From an uncultured bacterium (GTDB lineage Bacteria; Oederibacteriota; PGYV01; CAWJRG01), in assembly GCA_963845185.1 (NCBI GenBank), contig CAWJRG010000009.1, positions 288,001-352,000 of the forward strand: a stretch of 64,000 bases of DNA, given 5' to 3'. The notes under the pieces are model-generated. The model made no database searches, had not been told where the DNA came from, and worked only from the letters and a program-made list of their open reading frames with translations. A program made the position numbers and the translations under genes. Position 1 is the stretch's first letter, and each line of letters starts with the position of its first letter. Positions 11,786 through 41,639 of the stretch are shown here, piece by piece.

Positions 11786-12012
11786 AAAAGCAAGCTAAAA
11801 TCAAACCTATAACCTAGTTTGGAGGTACCAAATGTCTCCAGACATTTGGTATAAGTGCAGGACGATGAAACCGCAGGGCTACAGGGCAATGGCTGTGTGG
11901 GTTTCCATATAGGCCAAACTTATTAAAAATAGTATTTTATGGTTATAACTCATGCCTTATAAAAAAGTTAATCCGGAAAGAAATCCCACAACTTCAGTTG
12001 GTGGGATGAATT
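11786..12012 (+). mobile_element. Possible non-coding remnant of an IS200/IS605-family element
   Basis: Perfect 12-2-12 hairpin at 11826-11851; terminal AATCCCACAACTTCAGTTGGTGGGATGAATT hairpin resembling IS200/IS605 ends as recalled; no transposase ORF. Confidence 0.4.
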
Positions 12013-31858: not shown

Positions 31859-33019
31859 ATGAAAATGAAATATAACGACAGGATTTACAAACTACCGCCG
31901 TATATTTTTATTGAAATGGATAAAAAGAAAAAAGCAGCGCGGGAGGCAGGAAAGGATTTAATTGACCTTGGCATCGGCGATCCTGACAGGCCGACGCCTG
32001 AAAGGATACTTGGGTTTATCAAAGAGGAAGCAGACAAGCCGGCAAACCATACTTATCCCATAGGCAGGGGGCATAAAGTTTTTAAGGAAGCAATAATAAG
32101 ATGGATGTTGAAAAGATTTGACGTGGATGTAAACGACAAGGAGGTCCTTGCTTTGATAGGCGCCAAGGACGGCATCACGCATCTGCCGCTTGCTTTTGTC
32201 AATCCCGGGGATGTTGTCCTGATACCTGACCCTGGTTATCCGGGCTATATTGGCAGCGCCATAATTGCCGGAGCCACGCCTTACATAATGCCGCTGACAA
32301 AAGAAAATAATTTTCTGCCTGATATGAAAAAAATTCCCGAGGATGTTTATAAAAAAACAAAAATAATGTTTTTGAACTACCCAAATAACCCTACTTCCGC
32401 AATGGCAGGATTTGAGTTTTACGAGGAGGCGCTTTTTTACGCGCAAAAATATGATTTTATAATAGCGCAGGACGCGCCTTATTCCGAAATATATTTCAAG
32501 GATCCGCCCATATCGATACTGGAAATAAAGGACGCGAAAAAGAACGTGATTGAGTATTTCTCGATGTCAAAAACCTATAATATGACAGGATGGAGAGTCG
32601 GGTTCGCCGTAGGCGGCGAGGATATAATAAACGGGCTTGGCATTGTGAAAGAAAACATGGATTCAGGCACGGTTACCGCGCTTCAGATAGCATCTGCCCG
32701 CGCGCTTGATAACTGCGACAAAGAGGCCAGCCAGATAAGGGCGCTTTACAAGAAACGCGCTGAAGTGTTTTATAAAGGCTTAAAATCAGCGGGTTTTGGC
32801 GTGCTGGAGCCGGTCGCGACGCTTTATTTGTGGATGGCGATACCGGATAAATATACATCCATGGAATTTGCCTCCAAACTGCTGGATGAAGCAGGAGTTG
32901 TGGTTACTCCGGGCATAGGCTTCGGCCAGTCAGGCGATAAATACATAAGGATAGCGCTGACAATCGAGGAAGAAGTGATTGAAAAAGCGCTGGACCGGCT
33001 GGGTAGATTCAAGGCGTAA
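31859..33019 (+). CDS. dapL: LL-diaminopimelate aminotransferase (class I PLP aminotransferase)
   Basis: LPPYIF, DLGIGDPD, NYPNNPT, SMSKTYNMTGWRVG; last gene of the dap operon; AGGAGG RBS. Confidence 0.85.
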   Translation: MKMKYNDRIYKLPPYIFIEMDKKKKAAREAGKDLIDLGIGDPDRPTPERILGFIKEEADKPANHTYPIGRGHKVFKEAIIRWMLKRFDVDVNDKEVLALIGAKDGITHLPLAFVNPGDVVLIPDPGYPGYIGSAIIAGATPYIMPLTKENNFLPDMKKIPEDVYKKTKIMFLNYPNNPTSAMAGFEFYEEALFYAQKYDFIIAQDAPYSEIYFKDPPISILEIKDAKKNVIEYFSMSKTYNMTGWRVGFAVGGEDIINGLGIVKENMDSGTVTALQIASARALDNCDKEASQIRALYKKRAEVFYKGLKSAGFGVLEPVATLYLWMAIPDKYTSMEFASKLLDEAGVVVTPGIGFGQSGDKYIRIALTIEEEVIEKALDRLGRFKA

Positions 33020-33119
33020 TCCCTTCTCCCTTTTTTACGGTAATACAGCGCAAACCAGCCAGGCAGGGCGAAAAATCCCCAAAAGCCGGCGGAAAAGAAA
33101 AATTTATGCGGGGTACATC

Positions 33120-34970
33120 ATGAAGATATCAATTTCCAAAATCCGCTTTAATCCCGAAAACCCAAGGCATTTTATCAACCCTGACGGTATAGACAGCCTG
33201 GCCGCGTCCATGGAGGCAGATGGCCAGCTTGAATCCGTGAAAGTCCGCGAACTAACTCCCCAGGACACACCATCGCAGGGGTGCACCGCTATAGAGCCTG
33301 CCGAATACGAGCTTTTTGAGGGCGAGAGGCGCCTGCGGGCAGCAATGAAACTGGGCTGGACCGAGATAGAGGCTGAAGTATTTACGGGAAACAGGGAGGA
33401 CTTTTCCCTGAAGGGGTTCATGAACAATAATGGGGAGCCATACCACTGGCTGGACAAGTACAGGTATATAGCCGATTACATGGCAAAGCACCCCGACCTG
33501 ACACAAAGACAAATTGCAGACAAGCTTAACGTCGGCCTGACCATAGTTAATAACGCAAACAAAGTCATACCCCTGCTAAATGAGGGCGCAATGGCTGAAA
33601 TTGTTCGCATTGCGAACAAAACCACTGACTGGGAGGTGCCTGAAAGGTCAGTAGTTACGCTTTCCGGGCTGGCAAATGGCCAAAATAACGTTCTTGACCT
33701 TATGGAAAGGGCTCTGAAGGTGCTTATAGCCGGGAAAATGACTGAAAAACAGGTCAAAAAGCTGGCGGAGTGGGTAAAAGCAGGCAATTCACCGGAATCC
33801 TTCGGGGAGAGCGGCAAAACACACCCCTCGCCCCCTGAGGCGGGAGAGAGTCAGAGTGAGGGGGCTACTTCTGTAGCTGCAAATTCCGCTGAAGGCGACC
33901 AGGAATCCGGCCTAAACGGCGGGCGGCATGCCAAATTGTTGCAGGAGCTGAAGGATACAGGGTATTTTGAGATAAAAACGCCAGCCAAGAGCGGCCTTAA
34001 TATTATAATACAGGACGAGGACAGCGGCGCATTGGCAGCGCTTGGCGCGGCAGGGGCGATTTGGGCGCTGGGTCATCCGGATGGCGGCAAGCTGGACGAT
34101 AACCCGTATCTGGCAGACTTGCCCGGGCTCATAAAAGAAGTTCAAGGTTCAAGGCTCAATGGTCAACCAGCCTACGCCAACGCTATGGCGCACAAGCAGG
34201 CGGCTAAGGCAGCTCAAGAGGAAAGTAAAGTTCAAGGTTCAAAAGCTCAAGGGGTTCAAAGTGAGGGTATGGTAAGTAAATTCCAAATCCCAAACTCTGA
34301 AAATCCCAAATTGAATTCCCTTGACCTTGTTAAAAATATTTTGACAGCTGCCTCGGGCCACACGCCAAAGACTTTTTCCGGCAAAATATTGAAAACAGCG
34401 GCCATGTGGATGGCAAATAAGTTCAATAGCTCAACGGTCAAGGTTCAAGGTAATGAATTCCAAATTCCAAACTCTGAAAATCCCAAATTGAATAGTGCCA
34501 AATCCCAAATTCCGAATGGCTCTGCCGTAGTACGCAACACGATATTTGTAGTCATTGCTATTGCGATAGGTGCCTTTGCCCTGCTGCTTGGCCTGAAGAA
34601 GATAGCGCCTGGCGGACACTTCAGGGCTGCGTATTCTGCGGCGGCGCAAAAGCCAGGTGTTGTAACGCCTGTCACGTATAATAAGAGCAGGGAGTGGAAA
34701 CAGGCAATGCAGTGTTTTGCGGCAGCGGATTACGCAAGCGCGTTTATGTGGCTTGGAAAAACCGAGGAGAAATACGGCGACCAGGCGGATATTTACAGAT
34801 TAATGGGAGACTGCGAAAATAAACTGGGTAATTATCCGGATGCGGTAGAGCTCTATGAAAAGTATTCGAAAATGAACCCGGACGACGAGGAAATAAAAGC
34901 GAAGATTGAAGAGTTAAAGTCGACTGTGTCGCCGCCCGCCGGAATGGAAGAACCCACGCAGGAGCAGTAG
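33120..34970 (+). CDS. ParB-N domain protein with HTH, low-complexity linker, TM segment and C-terminal TPR
   Basis: NPENPR, LAASM..DGQL, YELFEGERRLRA..LGW; LTQRQIADKL HTH; TM IFVVIAIAIGAFALLLG; TPR-like tail. Confidence 0.75.
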   Translation: MKISISKIRFNPENPRHFINPDGIDSLAASMEADGQLESVKVRELTPQDTPSQGCTAIEPAEYELFEGERRLRAAMKLGWTEIEAEVFTGNREDFSLKGFMNNNGEPYHWLDKYRYIADYMAKHPDLTQRQIADKLNVGLTIVNNANKVIPLLNEGAMAEIVRIANKTTDWEVPERSVVTLSGLANGQNNVLDLMERALKVLIAGKMTEKQVKKLAEWVKAGNSPESFGESGKTHPSPPEAGESQSEGATSVAANSAEGDQESGLNGGRHAKLLQELKDTGYFEIKTPAKSGLNIIIQDEDSGALAALGAAGAIWALGHPDGGKLDDNPYLADLPGLIKEVQGSRLNGQPAYANAMAHKQAAKAAQEESKVQGSKAQGVQSEGMVSKFQIPNSENPKLNSLDLVKNILTAASGHTPKTFSGKILKTAAMWMANKFNSSTVKVQGNEFQIPNSENPKLNSAKSQIPNGSAVVRNTIFVVIAIAIGAFALLLGLKKIAPGGHFRAAYSAAAQKPGVVTPVTYNKSREWKQAMQCFAAADYASAFMWLGKTEEKYGDQADIYRLMGDCENKLGNYPDAVELYEKYSKMNPDDEEIKAKIEELKSTVSPPAGMEEPTQEQ

Positions 34971-34980
34971 AAGTGATGCT

Positions 34981-35131
34981 AAAAAAGCTTTGGACCATTT
35001 TAAGAAGGGTTCGTGAATACCGAATGCCGAATTCCAAATGGCCTTGGCGGAAGGCGGTAAAATGGATATTAAAGAAATTAAAAAAGGGTTCATGATTGGA
35101 ATGCGTTGAGAAAGCAGTGGAAAAGTGGTAA
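34981..35131 (+). repeat. Island intergenic module, copy A
   Basis: Similar to 36430-36592; core TWAARAAGGRTT.RTGA..GAATGC occurs twice. Confidence 0.8.
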
Positions 35132-35174
35132 GCTGGACAAAACACCTGATAAAATAACAGAAAGGATCAGGGAA

Positions 35175-36293
35175 ATGAGATTAAATAATCTTATAGAAGT
35201 AATAGAAAAAACACAGCAGGCTCTGAAAAAGAACGCGCTGACGGCGGTTAATGTTTCGCTGACAATACGAAACTGGCTGATAGGATATTATGTAGTAAGG
35301 TATGAACAAAAAGGGGAAGACAGGGCAAAATACGGTGAAAAACTGTTTGTTGAGATTTCTGGAAAACTTAAAAATAAAGGAATAAAGGGAATGTCGGAAA
35401 CGGCGTTAAGGCTATTCAGGCAATTTTATAAAACTTATCCTGAGCTGCTTAATCCGCCAGCCGGGCTTTTGCAGGCGTCCGGAGGAATAATTCATCAGTC
35501 AGTGACTGATGAATTGGTAAAAGAAGCACAAAAAGGCCTGCGTAGTGAAATGATAAAACAGATGTCTTTTACGCATATCGTTGAGCTTCTTAAAGTTGAT
35601 ACGGAATATAAACGCACGTTTTATGAAACTGAAGCAATCAGAGGCAACTGGTCTGTAAGGCAGTTAAAAAGGCAGATGGGTTCTCTACTGTATGAAAGAA
35701 CAGCGCTTTCAAAACGCAAGGCCCATCTTGTAAAAAAGACGGAATCCGTGCCGGACAAATTTAAAATCGAAGATACAATCAAAGACCCATATGTGCTTGA
35801 ATTCGCGGGCCTGCAGGAAAAGCCCGAGTACTCCGAAAACGACCTTGAAAGGGCCCTTATTACACATATTCAGGAATTTCTGCTGGAGCTTGGGACAGGT
35901 TTCTGTTTTGAAGGCAGGCAATACAGGATAACTACAGGCGGGGAACATGACAGGATAGACCTCGTTTTTTATCACAGGATTCTTCGCTGCCATGTCCTGA
36001 TAGACCTGAAAATAAGGGAGTTTTCACATGCCGATGCAGGGCAGATGAATTTTTATCTTAACTATTTCAGGGACAAGGTGATGAAACCGGGAGACAACCC
36101 GCCTGTGGGGTTGATACTATGTACTTATAAAGACAAAGCAAAGGTAAAATACTCCACAATAGGGCTCGACAACAGGTTGTTTGTTTCAAAATACAAAGTA
36201 TATCTGCCTTCGGAGCGCGAATTACTTCAGGAACTTGAAAGGGAAAAAGAGGATTTTATGCTTAAAGAAGAAGCGGCAAAATATGGGGAATGA
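35175..36293 (+). CDS. DUF1016/YhcG family PD-(D/E)XK nuclease, copy 1
   Basis: RNWLIGYY, RAKYG, WSVRQLKRQ, KDPYVLEF, FLLELGTGFCF, IDLVFYHRILRC, GQMNFY. Confidence 0.92.
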   Translation: MRLNNLIEVIEKTQQALKKNALTAVNVSLTIRNWLIGYYVVRYEQKGEDRAKYGEKLFVEISGKLKNKGIKGMSETALRLFRQFYKTYPELLNPPAGLLQASGGIIHQSVTDELVKEAQKGLRSEMIKQMSFTHIVELLKVDTEYKRTFYETEAIRGNWSVRQLKRQMGSLLYERTALSKRKAHLVKKTESVPDKFKIEDTIKDPYVLEFAGLQEKPEYSENDLERALITHIQEFLLELGTGFCFEGRQYRITTGGEHDRIDLVFYHRILRCHVLIDLKIREFSHADAGQMNFYLNYFRDKVMKPGDNPPVGLILCTYKDKAKVKYSTIGLDNRLFVSKYKVYLPSERELLQELEREKEDFMLKEEAAKYGE

Positions 36294-36429
36294 ATCCCGT
36301 AAAGACAAGCCTCTGGTTTCTGGTTTCAAGTCTCTATGTAAGGAAGCCTCTGAACAAGAAACCAGGAATCAGAAATTAGAAACTTTTTCAGAATGCCGAA
36401 TCCCGAATGGCCTTTAATGAACCGGCGCA

Positions 36430-36592
36430 AAAAAGCTGTGGAAGCATTTTAAGAAGGGTTCGTGATGGAATGCCAAATTCCAAATTCCGAATTCCAAATG
36501 GTTTTTAATGAAGAAAGGGGTAAAATGGATTTTAAAGAAATTTAAGAAGGATTTGTGATGGGATGCGTTGAGAAAGCAGTGGAAAAGTGATA
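36430..36592 (+). repeat. Island intergenic module, copy B
   Basis: Similar to 34981-35131; shares ATGCGTTGAGAAAGCAGTGGAAAAGTG exactly. Confidence 0.8.
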
Positions 36593-36665
36593 AAGTAAGA
36601 TAACATGAAAGAGGATAAATTACCAGGGAACAGGCAAATCAAAACCTAAAGTATAAGGAGCAGGA

Positions 36666-37787
36666 ATGAAAATCATTGAGAAGGCAGGCACTTTTAACAG
36701 CCTTGTATCCGCAATAAAGGACGTAGATAAACAGTTGGCGGCGCAGGCAAACAAAGCGGTTAATGTCAGCCTGACAATGAGAAACTGGTTTATAGGGTTC
36801 TATATACACGAATACGAAATGAATGGCGCCGACCGTTCCAGATATGGCGCGCGCCTGCTGCCTGCATTATCTGAAAAGCTGTCTGCAGTAAATGTAAGCA
36901 ATACAAACCGCAGGCAACTGTACCGGTATTTACGGTTTTACAGATTGTATCCCTCAATTGTGCGGACACTGCCCCCACAATTGGCAAAAGCCCTGCTGCA
37001 AGGCGCTGTAACAGAAAAAGTGGGGACACTGTCCCCACTTTTGGCAAAGAGGCAGGGAGAAATTATAAGCAGACTTTCTTACAGCCATATCGAACTGCTT
37101 GTTGACATGGAAGACGATACTAAACGCGCTTTTTATGAAATGGAATGCATGCGCGGTGGATGGTCGGTCAGGGAACTAGAGCGGCAGATAAACAGCCTGT
37201 ATTACGAACGCTCCGGACTTTCGAAAAATAAGAAGAAATTAAGCGTAATGACTCATGCAAAGGCCGAAAAAAACGAAAACAAACTGGACATAAGGGACCC
37301 GTTTGTTTTTGAGTTTCTAGGCCTTAAAGCAAAGGAAGTCATGGCTGAATCGCAAATAGAGGACGCCCTGATTGACAAACTGCAGGAATTCCTGCTGGAA
37401 CTCGGGCACGGGTTTTGTTTTGAGGCAAGGCAGAAACGTATACTGATAGGCGAAGAAAACGGGTTCATAGACCTGGTGTTTTATCACAGGGTTTTAAAGT
37501 GCCATGTACTTGTGGAGCTGAAACTCGGAAAATTCAGCCATGAGAATATAGGGCAGCTCAATACTTACGTGAGCTGGTATAAAAAGAACATGATGGAAAA
37601 GGGCGATAATCCGCCTGTGGGAATACTCCTTTGCACCAAAAAAGACCATGCGCTTGTCGAATACGCGCTTGCCGGCATGGATAACAAACTTTTCGTGTCG
37701 AAATACAAGCTTGAGCTGCCGAAGAAAGAAGAAATGGAAAGGTTTATGGAGGAACAAATTGAAAGAACCGGGACGGGCAGGTTGTAA
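36666..37787 (+). CDS. DUF1016/YhcG family PD-(D/E)XK nuclease, copy 2
   Basis: RNWFIGFY, WSVRELERQ, RDPFVFEFL, FLLELGHGFCFEARQ, GQLNTY. Confidence 0.92.
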   Translation: MKIIEKAGTFNSLVSAIKDVDKQLAAQANKAVNVSLTMRNWFIGFYIHEYEMNGADRSRYGARLLPALSEKLSAVNVSNTNRRQLYRYLRFYRLYPSIVRTLPPQLAKALLQGAVTEKVGTLSPLLAKRQGEIISRLSYSHIELLVDMEDDTKRAFYEMECMRGGWSVRELERQINSLYYERSGLSKNKKKLSVMTHAKAEKNENKLDIRDPFVFEFLGLKAKEVMAESQIEDALIDKLQEFLLELGHGFCFEARQKRILIGEENGFIDLVFYHRVLKCHVLVELKLGKFSHENIGQLNTYVSWYKKNMMEKGDNPPVGILLCTKKDHALVEYALAGMDNKLFVSKYKLELPKKEEMERFMEEQIERTGTGRL

Positions 37788-38019
37788 TCCAAAATCTTGA
37801 ATTATTTTTTCATTGAAAATTGGAAATTGATAATTGAGAATTGTTGAATGATGGATTTTAAAGAAATTCAAGAAGGATATTTGATTGAAATGCCAAAGGG
37901 AGGAATATCAGATATCCGATATTTGATACTGGATATTTTAATCCCGGATTCCGAACAGTCTTTACTTCACCAGAAACCAGGAATTAGAAACAAGAAACTT
38001 CAGATAGGAGGAGAATTTT

Positions 38020-38478
38020 ATGGCGCAGCGAACTAAGTACATAGGTTTGGGCAGGTCGGCTTTAAAAATAAAGTACAAAAAGGCTTTTTATGACTGGGTG
38101 AATTTTAACTATAAATACGACGACCCCTGTGGCGTATATCCGGTGAGACCCGAGGAGGAGTACGACACAGGCAATGTGTACCTCATCCGTGAATTGAACG
38201 ACTCACCAATGGTTTGGGAAAAATGGATAAGGAAGAATTTTCTCAAGATATTCAGGCATGAATTGTACATATGGGAAAACCACAGCAACAGATGGCCCAA
38301 GAACCTGACATGGAAGAAATTCGATAAATTTTTCGAGTATGGTTTCAATCTGGGAGTGTACGATCTTGACGAAGGCAGGCCGATTTACGGCCTCAGCCCT
38401 GGCAGCAGTGAATTGAAACTAATGGATAGGCAGGTCAAAACTTTGAAAAAATGGATGCGCATGCGGGGAAAAATATAG
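38020..38478 (+). CDS. Hypothetical protein
   Basis: AGGAG RBS; aromatic-rich ORF (FYDWVN..VYLI.E..IFRHEL..WPKNL). Confidence 0.7.
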   Translation: MAQRTKYIGLGRSALKIKYKKAFYDWVNFNYKYDDPCGVYPVRPEEEYDTGNVYLIRELNDSPMVWEKWIRKNFLKIFRHELYIWENHSNRWPKNLTWKKFDKFFEYGFNLGVYDLDEGRPIYGLSPGSSELKLMDRQVKTLKKWMRMRGKI

Positions 38479-38603
38479 AAGCCGGCCGGCCGCCTAAAAA
38501 AAAGCGTGAAAAAGCTGTGGAAGCATTTTAAGAAGGATATTTGATTGGAATGCCGAAGGGTTTGTTGAAGGATGGATTTTGAGGTGAAAGGAGAAACTTT
38601 ATA

Positions 38604-39245
38604 ATGAAAAGAAAAAAAATGAAAAAAATTTTTATCGAATGTCCCTTTTGTAACGATAAAAATGAAGGAGAAATAATTGGAACTAATCTAGAGGATGTTA
38701 ATCCAGAAGATGATATTCCATATACGACGATATCATTAGTTAGATGCAAGAAATGTAGAAAGGCAATTCTGTTAAAAGATGAATTACAACCAATCAAAGA
38801 TACCGATGAGTGGGCCTGTAGTGGTGATGAACGCTTATGGCCAAGTCCGGAATTTATTTTTGACAATGCGATACCAGCAAATATAAGAAAATCCTTGGAA
38901 GAAGCATACAGATGTTATAAAGTTAGAGCTTATGATGCTTGTGCGGTAATGTGCGGAAAAGCACTTGAAGCTGTCGGGAAAGAATATAAGGTTGAGTCTG
39001 ATACTCTTGATAAAATTCTTAAAGAATTAAAAGAAAAAGAAATTATAGATAAAAGAATTGTTGAATGGGGGGATGCATTAAGAAGAATTAGAAATATAGG
39101 AGCTCATGCTTCGACTGCTGAAATAACGAATCAAGATGCGGTTGATTTGCTTGAATTTATAAAGGCCATATGCGAATATATATTTGTATTAACTAAAAGG
39201 TATGATACTTTCAAGGCCAGATTAGGAAAAAAGATAGGTGAATGA
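38604..39245 (+). CDS. Zn-ribbon plus DUF4145 (HEPN-like) protein
   Basis: CPFC/CKKC, EEAYRCY..ACAVMCGKALE, RRIRNIGAH (RxxRNxxxH). Confidence 0.8.
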   Translation: MKRKKMKKIFIECPFCNDKNEGEIIGTNLEDVNPEDDIPYTTISLVRCKKCRKAILLKDELQPIKDTDEWACSGDERLWPSPEFIFDNAIPANIRKSLEEAYRCYKVRAYDACAVMCGKALEAVGKEYKVESDTLDKILKELKEKEIIDKRIVEWGDALRRIRNIGAHASTAEITNQDAVDLLEFIKAICEYIFVLTKRYDTFKARLGKKIGE

Positions 39246-39431
39246 ATGGACGAGAAATTGGAAAACGTACTAAAAGGACAATCTGAAGCCTCAGAAAAGA
39301 GATTTTGAAGCTGAAACTAAGGAAGGTTATCTCGCTCTTTGAGCGTAACGATAAGCTAAAAATCAACACTGTTTACAGATGAAGAACGCAGAAATAGAGT
39401 TTAAAACTATATAGGGGAAGGTGATAAATTA

Positions 39432-39671
39432 ATGGACACCGTCGTAATAAATGCTAAGGAAGAATATGCATATGGTTATATAATTAATGCGTTAGCGGGA
39501 GGATTATATCCCGATAAATTTCATGTCATAAGAGAATATATTCAAAATGGTTATGATGCAATAATAAATTGGAAGAAGATTTCGAAAGATAAAACTTCAA
39601 GTATTAAGGTTGTATTAAATAAACCTTCTATTATCAGACCTTGCCCTTTGAACAGTTCAGAACTTAACTAA
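39432..39671 (+). pseudogene. Truncated GHKL (Hsp90/MORC-like) ATPase N-terminus
   Basis: LAGGLYPDKFHVIREYIQNGYDA N-box; breaks off before the expected DNG motif. Confidence 0.65.
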
Positions 39672-39719
39672 TTGCTGATTTAAACCAATTATTTAAAGGA
39701 GTGTGAAGGTGTACAAATA

Positions 39720-40562
39720 ATGAGCTTACATGATAAAGTAAAAGAACAAGTGCTGTTAAGCTGTAATAGTCTAGGTTTTCAAGCCAAGGAAGAATACAGT
39801 GGTAAAGATTGGCAAGCAGATGTTTTTGTGCTTACTAATTACGCAAAATATGCCTTTGAAGTTCAAATAACTCAGCAGTCATTGAATGAAACGTTGGCAA
39901 GACAGGAAAAATATAAAAGGGATGGTGTCATCGGCTGTTGGCTGTTTGAAAAAGAGCCAGCTGGGCAAAAAGATGAAAGAGAAGACCTTCCTTTATTTAA
40001 GATAAAAAATGTAGAAGATAAAACTATTGTATCCATCAAAGATAGAAAAGAACTGCCACTAGAAGTTTTTATTAGTGATTATCTTCAGAATAAAATTAAA
40101 TTTTGTCAAACACTTAGGATGCCTATAGCAGAGATTAGATTTGTAAAAGAAAAATGTTGGAAATGTGGCTTCGAATATCATATCTACTATATTGGTAACT
40201 TTATTTCGCCGTGCAATGCAAAAATATTGCCTAATGAAGCAATGTGGGTTTCAGACAAATTAGCATTTAAGCCTGAGATTATTACTAAAGTGAATGACTA
40301 TGCAATATCCGTAAAGGAACAAAACTTGAATATTGGAACAATAAAAGAACGGTACAGTAAAACGACAGAGAGTTCATATGTATCTTTTGGGTGTCCGCAA
40401 TGCGATGCTATATTCGGGGACTGGTTTCTTCACGAAGCAATTATTGACACATTCTATGGAGGAATTGCTGATAAAATACTAATTGAGGGGAATTTTGGTA
40501 CGCAATTAGAACGAAGTATTCCACATTGGTGTCATCCCGGCGAACATATGTTTTGTGAGTGA
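39720..40562 (+). CDS. CoiA-like PD-(D/E)XK nuclease with Zn-binding motifs
   Basis: WQADVFV..YAFEVQIT..RQEKY...GV..CWLF; CWKC and CPQC. Confidence 0.6.
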   Translation: MSLHDKVKEQVLLSCNSLGFQAKEEYSGKDWQADVFVLTNYAKYAFEVQITQQSLNETLARQEKYKRDGVIGCWLFEKEPAGQKDEREDLPLFKIKNVEDKTIVSIKDRKELPLEVFISDYLQNKIKFCQTLRMPIAEIRFVKEKCWKCGFEYHIYYIGNFISPCNAKILPNEAMWVSDKLAFKPEIITKVNDYAISVKEQNLNIGTIKERYSKTTESSYVSFGCPQCDAIFGDWFLHEAIIDTFYGGIADKILIEGNFGTQLERSIPHWCHPGEHMFCE

Positions 40563-41415: not shown

Positions 41416-41639
41416 AGGAGATGCGCTTTGAAAGCGAAAGAAAAAAGCAAAAAGTGTTAGACCTTGCTTCGTGCTTTATTAAATTTATTTTATGTCAAGA
41501 ACTGTTTTTTTCAGGAGAGGGAGATAAAGCACCCTCACCCTGTTCCTGTTGAAGAATACTTATTATATATTTTATGGACTCTCAACGTTGAATATTCCAC
41601 TGGAATATTCAACCCCTTCTCTGAAAAGGCTTGTCAAGC

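Follow-up and report, generated by a model that had tools for sequence, protein, structure and literature searches.

The two nuclease genes and their palindromes

Here we analysed two neighbouring genes for nucleases of the YhcG/DUF1016 family, each of which carries a perfect DNA palindrome inside its own coding sequence, in a window of 64 kb (by which we mean the whole stretch of DNA analysed, 64,000 nucleotides (nt) of contig CAWJRG010000009.1 from an uncultured bacterium). YhcG/DUF1016 is among the commonest uncharacterised nuclease families of bacteria, archaea and mobile elements, with a member in E. coli K-12, and it is a candidate phage-defence gene for which we know of no substrate, site or regulator. 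The two genes and the palindromic units within them are the following:

35175..36293, forward strand: YhcG/DUF1016 nuclease gene copy 1 (E-values: PF17761 3.6e-28, PF06250 1.6e-57, PADLOC PDC-S02 1.9e-129)
35175, forward strand: ATG start codon of copy 1, with a further in-frame TTG upstream at 35106
35489..35515, forward strand: palindrome of copy 1 (arms 35489-35501 and 35503-35515), perfect 13-1-13, encoding linker residues 104-113, IIHQSVTDEL
36666..37787, forward strand: YhcG/DUF1016 nuclease gene copy 2 (PF17761 7.7e-25, PF06250 6.9e-55, PDC-S02 4e-124; weak HTH_ParB match, 0.0075)
36956..36982, forward strand: first unit of copy 2, palindromic at 11 of 13 pairs, encoding SIVRTLPPQL
37016..37042, forward strand: second unit of copy 2 (arms 37016-37028 and 37030-37042), perfect 13-1-13, encoding EKVGTLSPLL

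Residues of copy 1 are numbered by counting the codon at 35178 as the first. Both copies are plain members of the family (COG4804; PF17761 plus PF06250; PDC-S02). The DUF1016_N domain (PF17761) scored 98.8 and 88.0 bits in copies 1 and 2 respectively, against a curated cut-off of 32.8, and the YhcG_C domain of the PD-(D/E)XK type (PF06250) scored 194.2 and 185.6 bits against a cut-off of 32.5. The match of both genes to the PADLOC candidate defence protein is a database label, and the role in defence is accordingly a candidate one. The catalytic residues E237, D261 and K278 are invariant in 139 family sequences, the last catalytic element reading D-L-K in copy 1 and E-L-K in copy 2, and the nuclease motif is given as E-D-E(I/L/V)K in the accessible text of PMC1189080. 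According to the same text the family was assigned to the PD-(D/E)XK superfamily in 2005, leaving unassigned a helical N-terminal domain of about 200 amino acids.

Both perfect palindromes were recovered by a repeat search and by a separate scan, with arms of 13 nt that are 100% complementary and separated by 1 nt, and the first unit of copy 2 appeared in the repeat search as 14-nt arms at 86%. The distance from the first to the second unit of copy 2 is 60 nt and their cores are related. All three units begin on the third base of a codon and lie between an F-Y-x-x-Y-P segment and an S-[FYW]-[ST]-H motif. The chance origin of both palindromes is excluded, because perfect palindromes with arms of at least 11 nt and a spacer of at most 4 nt number just five in the whole window, and the 3.5-Mb genome holds only 35 with arms of at least 12 nt and a 1-nt spacer, mostly belonging to two non-coding repeat families. 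The genome contains five DUF1016 copies. In every one a 13-1-13 palindrome occupies the homologous position with its codon phase conserved (scores of 13, 13 with the additional unit of 11, 13, 10 and 12 out of 13), and the cores of the five differ. Our first-pass annotation of this DNA, which had reported two perfect palindromes with an imperfect sister, and a position after the N-terminal F+..YP segment that is conserved while the arms differ, was therefore correct in its coordinates, with the sister matching at 11 of 13 pairs, and in its claim of a shared position, both genes having the same codon phase.

Constraint on the DNA across the family

To place these palindromes within the family, homologues were taken with their DNA from 80 loci of named genomes, 80 of metagenomes and 80 of viral contigs, and the open reading frames (ORFs) picked by a hidden Markov model (HMM) yielded 213 distinct full-length genes from many phyla. 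A linker palindrome of at least 10/13 was found at the same spot in 195 of the 213 homologues (score 13 in 40 genes, 12 in 69, 11 in 55, 10 in 31, 9 in 13, 7 in four and 6 in one), in the same codon phase (phase 2) in 203, and in 189 it was the best 13-1-13 palindrome of the entire ORF. The palindrome is thus kept in one place and one phase across bacteria, archaea and viral contigs, and the symmetry that we had first noticed in two genes occurs among DUF1016 genes far beyond chance. Of the five genes scoring 7/13 or less, three are instead perfectly palindromic in a 12-0-12 geometry and a fourth matches at 11/12 around a 2-nt spacer. These variants with spacers of 0 or 2 nt (loci L065, L203, L213 and L202) imply a shift of half-site spacing inside the family. 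About a third of the genes contain two or more units, and in 62 such genes the units are spaced by 33 to 132 nt.

Permutation of synonymous codons within each of 86 genes (300 shuffles), which keeps the protein and its codon usage, gave a mean score of 6.19 at the same site and of 7.96 at the best site of the linker, against an observed mean of 11.31 out of 13. None of the 300 shuffles matched the observed score in 44 of the 86 genes and at most 5% did so in 77, with nine genes above 5%. Changes on both sides were observed in all 13 arm pairs of 147 aligned units, in which 91.3% of the paired cells were complementary compared with 64.5% after shuffling (none of 500 shuffles was as high), the covariation score of the arms was 0.662 compared with 0.184, and slid registers were paired at 28-39% only. 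The proposal that selection acts on the symmetry of the DNA rather than on the peptide is borne out by these values, and we conclude that the palindrome is a family-wide, phase-locked element at the level of the DNA that constrains synonymous sites. A symmetry driven by the peptide was rejected, since the permutation with the peptide fixed gives 6.2 and not 11.3 of 13.

Examination of the mismatches provides information on whether the symmetry belongs to DNA or to RNA. In 111 distinct units scoring at least 10/13, the mismatches at positions 1-12 comprised 33 G-T, 37 A-C and 84 others, and over the 147 units G-U was, with few exceptions, restricted to the pairs at the two ends of the arm. The arms co-vary without the excess of G-U wobble that selection on RNA should favour, which makes an RNA helix improbable. 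The symmetry extends, in addition, into the bases that an RNA hairpin would need for its loop. A search of Rfam with the palindromes gave no match at E ≤1, and a structured RNA element was rejected on this result and on the mismatch counts. An intrinsic terminator was rejected as well, six terminator-like sites being found in 34900-38100 and none of them being a palindrome.

The palindromes are unique within the genome. Four of them were tested and no other copy with up to 6 mismatches in 27 was found across the 3.5 Mb, and half-site matches occurred at about the level of chance. Neither were further copies of a gene's own palindrome (19-nt core, up to 2 mismatches) found outside the ORF in 71 loci with flanks of 1.5 kb, amounting to 184 kb. 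Units inside a gene share their core, those of the first two units in the 62 multi-unit genes agreeing at 6.97 of 8 nt compared with 3.86 of 8 between genes. Together with the difference in cores between the five paralogues, these results uphold the suggestion of a private site for each paralogue. A dispersed repeat inserted in the gene, such as a repetitive extragenic palindromic (REP) element or a miniature inverted-repeat transposable element, was also considered and was rejected on the same genome search.

Helix residues that track single bases of the palindrome

What is new here is that residues on the two helices flanking the linker track single bases of the palindrome. For 189 genes with a good unit, aligned to an HMM of 380 columns, mutual information was calculated for every combination of arm position and protein column, the background being 0.21 on average (standard deviation 0.11) over 2058 column-by-position pairs. 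The top pair outside the columns encoded by the palindrome was column 91 with position 7 (1.13 bits, z 8.4), followed by column 94 with position 6 (0.97 bits, z 6.9) and column 149 with position 11 (0.85 bits, z 5.8), the next in rank being 94 with 5, 177 with 11 and 152 with 10. The helix immediately before the linker (G-F-S-x-R-N-L-x-x-M-R) bears columns 91, 94 and 95, and the S-W-S-H helix immediately after it bears columns 149 and 152; the mutual information of columns 101 and 102, which have high entropy and are nearer to the palindrome, was not elevated. In the two genes of the window the corresponding features are:

35394..35435, forward strand: codons of the predicted recognition helix of copy 1, model residues 73-86 (helix 74-86, pLDDT about 90)
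35565..35591, forward strand: codons of the predicted second reading helix of copy 1, S-F-T-H-I-V-E-L-L
36900..36944, forward strand: codons of the predicted recognition helix of copy 2, whose R83, Y86 and R87 fit the core G-T-G-G by the family rules
37077..37100, forward strand: codons of the predicted second reading helix of copy 2, S-Y-S-H-I-E-L-L, with S140 accompanying A at arm position 11

In copy 1 the covarying positions are T75 for arm position 7, R78 for positions 5-6, L79 for position 8, T132 for position 11 and V135 for positions 9-10.

The associations behind these values in the 189 genes are strong. All 82 genes with Arg in column 91 have G at position 7, and Arg accounts for 82 of the 87 genes that have this G; Asp, Ala, Gln or Lys in the column is accompanied by C, and Thr in most cases by T. 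Column 94 is related to position 6 through Tyr with T (39/41), Glu with C (12/14), Lys with G (23/30) and Arg with G (30/46). Arg in column 95 accompanies G at position 8 in 40 of 47 genes, Ser in column 149 accompanies A at position 11 in 112 of 119, and Arg in column 152 accompanies A-C at positions 9-10 in 22 of 26. From the sequences, the contingency tables look like those of a direct read-out. Position 7 falls on the third base of a codon, and synonymous codons of the linker are told apart by Arg in column 91: this Arg is present with 35/35 Val codons GTG and 0/17 GTC, GTT or GTA, with 19/19 Arg codons CGG and 0/11 CGC or CGT, with 8/9 Leu codons CTG or TTG and 0/12 of the others, and with 2/2 Gly codons GGG and 0/12 of the others. 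The coupling is therefore to the nucleotide and not to the amino acid of the linker. A hidden repeat in the DNA, by which the helix codons would be a third arm, was rejected, as the comparison of these codons with the arm of their own gene gave 4.56 nt and with the arms of other genes 4.44, and Arg uses all six of its codons.

The repeated origin of these associations was examined with independent pairs on supported branches of trees built from other parts of the protein. Among the results listed, the covarying states changed about 29 to 44 times, and the pairs changed in the same rather than in the opposite direction for Arg/G in column 91 (9 pairs, 8.7 against 0; p 0.004), Arg-Lys/G in column 94 (10 pairs, 7.6 against 0; p 0.008), Arg/G in column 95 (14 pairs, 10.5 against 0.4; p 0.002) and Ser/A in column 149 (19 pairs, 17.7 against 0; p 8e-6), so that the association does not appear to be one inherited accident. 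The rules were also applied to 55 further genes held out from other genomes of the same phylum. Arg in column 91 predicted G in 16 of 17 genes (base rate 19/55) and other residues there a base other than G in 35 of 38; Tyr, Phe or Trp predicted T in 17/17 (base 38/55) and Glu or Asp predicted C in 5/5 (base 6/55); Arg in column 152 predicted C in 10/10 (base 12/55), and Ser in column 149 predicted A in 16/18 (base 16/55).

Two paralogues of the genome, cp3 and cp5, offer a natural comparison (C9:929605-930700, L001, and C9:655400-656500, L005/L006, with cp5 frameshifted). Their identity is about 93% except in a patch of some 130 nt spanning the centre of the palindrome and the second helix, and the first helix and arm positions 5-8 are unchanged between them. 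The patch looks like a natural, partial swap of specificity. Considering the covariation tables, the repeated origins, the held-out genes, the split of synonymous codons and this patch, the idea put forward in the first-pass annotation that specificity diversifies together with the adjacent helix has stood up, and extends to helices on both sides of the linker.

The AlphaFold model of copy 1 has a mean per-residue confidence (pLDDT) of 83.8 and begins with a long N-terminal helix (2-45), followed by a predicted helix-turn-helix (52-66 and 74-86) that bears T75, R78 and L79. The linker (91-125) is of lower confidence (pLDDT 65-71) and includes residues 104-113 encoded by the palindrome, after which come helices 131-138, with T132 and V135, and 160-168, and then the nuclease domain. 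With the whole model, Foldseek matched only the nuclease domain, to NucS/EndoMS (2vld, E 2e-5) and less strongly to Can2/Card1, MspJI, FokI and SduA, and a sequence search of solved structures returned only one weak and irrelevant match. The head modelled in isolation has a pLDDT of 86.5, and its longest alignments by VIA, all weak, were to the DNA-binding domains of ParB-parS, Spo0J and KorB: 6s6h_B (Z 5.7, root-mean-square deviation (rmsd) 4.8, 101 residues aligned), 1vz0_A (Z 5.3, rmsd 2.5, 90), 8qa8_A (Z 4.8, rmsd 3.4, 96) and 1r71_A (Z 4.4, rmsd 3.4, 95), in line with the sub-threshold HTH_ParB match of copy 2. No match to the ParB N-terminal, CTP-binding domain (PF02195) was found in either copy at E ≤0.01. 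The predicted homodimer reached an interface score (ipSAE) of 0.69 compared with 0.01 for the best control. Among proteins of solved structure, 20 of 30 homodimers and 1 of 23 single chains attain this mark. At least 91% of the contacts were shared between runs, and the pLDDT of the partner was at least 64. Helix 1-42, together with residues 59-72 and the linker stretch 97-114, makes up the predicted interface, and the model supports pairing.

Genomic setting, rival explanations and known systems

DUF1016_N is patchy and often present in multiple copies in the phylum, with a match in 39 of 99 genomes and up to 10 matches per genome. The family frequently adjoins type I restriction and other defence genes and is found habitually within foreign operons, according to the accessible text of PMC9881135. 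In the window, the ORF preceding the two genes (32979-34970, 663 amino acids) has a ParB N-terminal domain (PF02195) and C-terminal tetratricopeptide repeats, and its middle part is the translation of short A/T-rich repeats that also fill the intergenic modules. Downstream, at 38020-40562, there are a protein of 152 amino acids without family, a DUF4145 protein and a CoiA-like protein with a nuclease domain, and the two nucleases together with these neighbours look like a small island of the defence type. The intergenic regions at 34978-35131, 36385-36593, 37839-37889 and 38499-38549 hold copies of one module (about 50-150 nt, 61-96% alike), of which a 12-nt segment has 186 occurrences in the genome when up to one substitution is allowed. 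The module gives the nuclease genes and their neighbours the look of cassettes that share an upstream element. Other palindromes of the genome were observed outside the DUF1016 genes. A third perfect 13-1-13 palindrome of the window, with a C-A-N-T-G centre, lies at 41587-41613 in apparently non-coding DNA and is one of about a dozen similar dispersed 27-mers on contigs C5, C9 and C10, of a sequence unrelated to the DUF1016 palindromes. A second dispersed family, found on contigs C1, C5, C9 and C10 outside the window, is of 14-1-14 geometry, rich in G+C and present in at least 10 perfect copies, and might represent a REP-like element or mark the termini of a mobile element. A perfect 12-2-12 palindrome is located at 11826-11851.

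Several explanations have to be weighed against recognition of the palindrome by the protein that it helps to encode. Selection on the linker peptide, or co-evolution of this peptide with the neighbouring helices, might have produced the symmetry as a side effect, as could be argued from the recurring pattern I/K-x-x-[ST]-[VLA]-[ST] at the site and from the contacts that linker residues 105-114 make with the partner in the dimer model; the fixed-peptide expectation and the discrimination of synonymous codons by a helix residue already contradict this explanation, to which we give practically no weight. A hairpin in the mRNA, with a stem of 12 bp and a loop of 3 nt, might control the translation, decay or processing of the nuclease transcript, and would agree with the stable hairpin that either strand can form, with the co-variation of the arms and with a location inside the ORF of a possibly toxic gene. 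It is nonetheless very improbable, for G-U pairs are not in excess, pairing runs into the would-be loop, Rfam and the terminator-like sites do not include the palindromes, and the covarying residues are on the helices of a helix-turn-helix. Somewhat less improbable, although still a poor candidate, is a self-perpetuating quasi-palindrome, in which template switching copies one arm from the other and the symmetry reflects a mutation bias with no function. Such a process would explain why the symmetry continues as far as the centre and extends to outer A/T bases that no residue was found to read, why the mismatches have neither strand nor wobble bias and why the units in one gene remain alike. 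It predicts, however, no link between the bases of the arms and residues outside them, yet Arg in column 91 tracks a silent third-codon base, and the rules relating residues to bases hold on new genes and arose repeatedly; one phase and one place across bacteria, archaea and viral contigs also ask for more than mutation bias. Template switching may be the way in which both arms change together, but alone it is insufficient because the bases of the arms are linked to residues of the protein.

The main alternative concerns the use of the site rather than its reading, namely that the palindrome is a substrate, with the nuclease cutting or nicking its own site, or the hairpin or cruciform formed by it, for gene conversion, rearrangement or spread, in a homing-like or cis-acting selfish manner. 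The same covariation evidence applies to such cleavage or recombination, the PD-(D/E)XK domain retains its three catalytic residues and has a fold like that of NucS/EndoMS and, more weakly, of FokI, MspJI and SduA, and the family is multi-copy and patchy. The sharply bounded divergent patch between the near-identical cp3 and cp5 and the hairpin that is possible on each strand (-10.5 and -12.5 kcal/mol) point in the same direction. Cutting the sole cognate site of the genome would, however, break the nuclease's own gene; no target-like extra copies were found in the flanks of the 71 loci, and neither empty and filled alleles nor excision products were seen. We consider this alternative unlikely, even if it deserves more credit than the quasi-palindrome.

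The reading that we favour, and which is probably correct, is that the protein's own head recognises the palindrome in its own gene. The palindrome would be a double-stranded DNA site read by the protein that it helps to encode, through an N-terminal helical head that has a helix-turn-helix and a putative likeness to the DNA-binding domain of ParB, KorB and Noc, and that would pair through the long N-terminal helix to form a two-fold dimer. Each half-site would be read by two helices, the one before the linker reading positions 5-8 and the one after it positions 9-11. Every gene would in this way carry a private address beside the codons for its specificity and, since the address adjoins these codons, site and reader would be inherited together. 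We infer physical binding by a dimeric head from the residue-to-base rules and the predicted structure.

A number of observations weigh against this recognition. With respect to the site, it lies 300-400 nt inside the ORF and no copy of it was found near the promoter in 71 loci, which is unusual for an operator; the central spacer is 0, 1 or 2 nt across the family, a variation that a rigid dimer would not tolerate; and the outer A/T positions are symmetric too, yet no tracking residue was found for them. With respect to the code, Arg and Lys favour G and acidic residues favour C in protein-DNA contacts, and the pairing of Lys and Gln in column 91 with C is contrary to this textbook preference. 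The rule of Arg or Lys with G in column 94 is loose (53/76 training genes and 9/16 held-out genes), as is that of Arg with G in column 95 (13/21 held-out genes). The covarying helices adjoin the palindrome, and co-inheritance in a recombination block could inflate the associations, the trees having been taken from other parts of the protein. With respect to the structure, the likeness to ParB, KorB and Noc is weak, the VIA scores (Z 4.4-5.7) being within the inconclusive range of the tool itself, and Foldseek with the head alone gave nothing at E ≤0.001 (all rows had E >0.6). The match to HTH_ParB (PF17762), confined to copy 2, has an E-value of 0.0075 and 16.8 bits, below the cut-off of 22.6, and the pLDDT of the dimer model is moderate (65-71).

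If the head does recognise its palindrome, the purpose may tentatively be sought in the self-limitation of a potentially toxic and horizontally mobile nuclease, a proposal that we hold with clearly less confidence than the recognition itself. An operator within the ORF could act as a roadblock or tether in cis, whatever the promoter behind which the gene had landed, and would provide a self-control that travels with the gene without a promoter of its own. A still bolder and rather doubtful view is that YhcG/DUF1016 represents a large library of self-addressed and mutually orthogonal nucleases, each specifying a 27-bp site through a simple code of residues to bases (Arg or Lys for G, Glu or Asp for C, and an aromatic residue or Thr for T), the site serving as a brake or loading point that acts in cis and independently of the promoter. 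Site and reader would change together, so that five paralogues could live in one cell without cross-talk.

The palindrome tied to residues of its own helix-turn-helix provides the first concrete hypothesis for what YhcG/DUF1016 binds. If true, this would be an unusually clean natural case of a DNA site and its reader diversifying together, with the site lying among the codons of the reader, and under the library view specificity would be predictable from sequence for thousands of uncharacterised enzymes. Throughout the family the site restricts the choice of synonymous codons, a warning, for recoding and for the estimation of evolutionary rates alike, that silent positions in these genes are non-neutral.

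Operators inside coding sequences are known, as in the case of lac O2 in lacZ, gal OI in galE and the purR operators, where a repressor site lies downstream of the promoter. The YhcG palindrome may be likened to them in being an in-ORF site. Those operators, however, are auxiliary sites of single regulons and not the sole site and, unlike the palindrome described here, they are not known to be conserved in frame across a family or to co-vary with their reader. The correction of quasi-palindromes by template switching likewise yields in-frame palindromes with arms that remain complementary despite the drift of their sequence, from which the YhcG case differs in that the bases of its arms are tied to protein residues outside the palindrome. 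In the main texts of the literature searched (including the accessible parts of PMC9881135, PMC4316617, PMC7967276 and PMC1189080), neither a palindrome in YhcG/DUF1016 genes nor a DNA site for the protein was found.

The arrangement closest to the one proposed here would be that of ParB with parS, Noc with NBS and KorB with its operator, in which two DNA-binding domains, related by two-fold symmetry, occupy a palindrome of 14-16 bp. A parS site is located inside spo0J of B. subtilis. In contrast to ParB, the YhcG copies have no N-terminal CTPase domain (PF02195, E ≤0.01) and their head is fused to a PD-(D/E)XK nuclease. As described in the accessible text of PMC7383237, the recognition helix of the helix-turn-helix of ParB and two further helices contact the palindromic site, and the specificity of ParB and Noc is set by four residues on helix alpha4 and neighbouring helices. 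The YhcG site, unlike those of ParB and Noc, measures 27 bp and is embedded in frame in the linker that joins the two putative reading helices. Finally, whereas the specificities of ParB and Noc are conserved across species (PMC7383237, accessible text), the site of YhcG is present in almost every member of its family and is different in almost every one.

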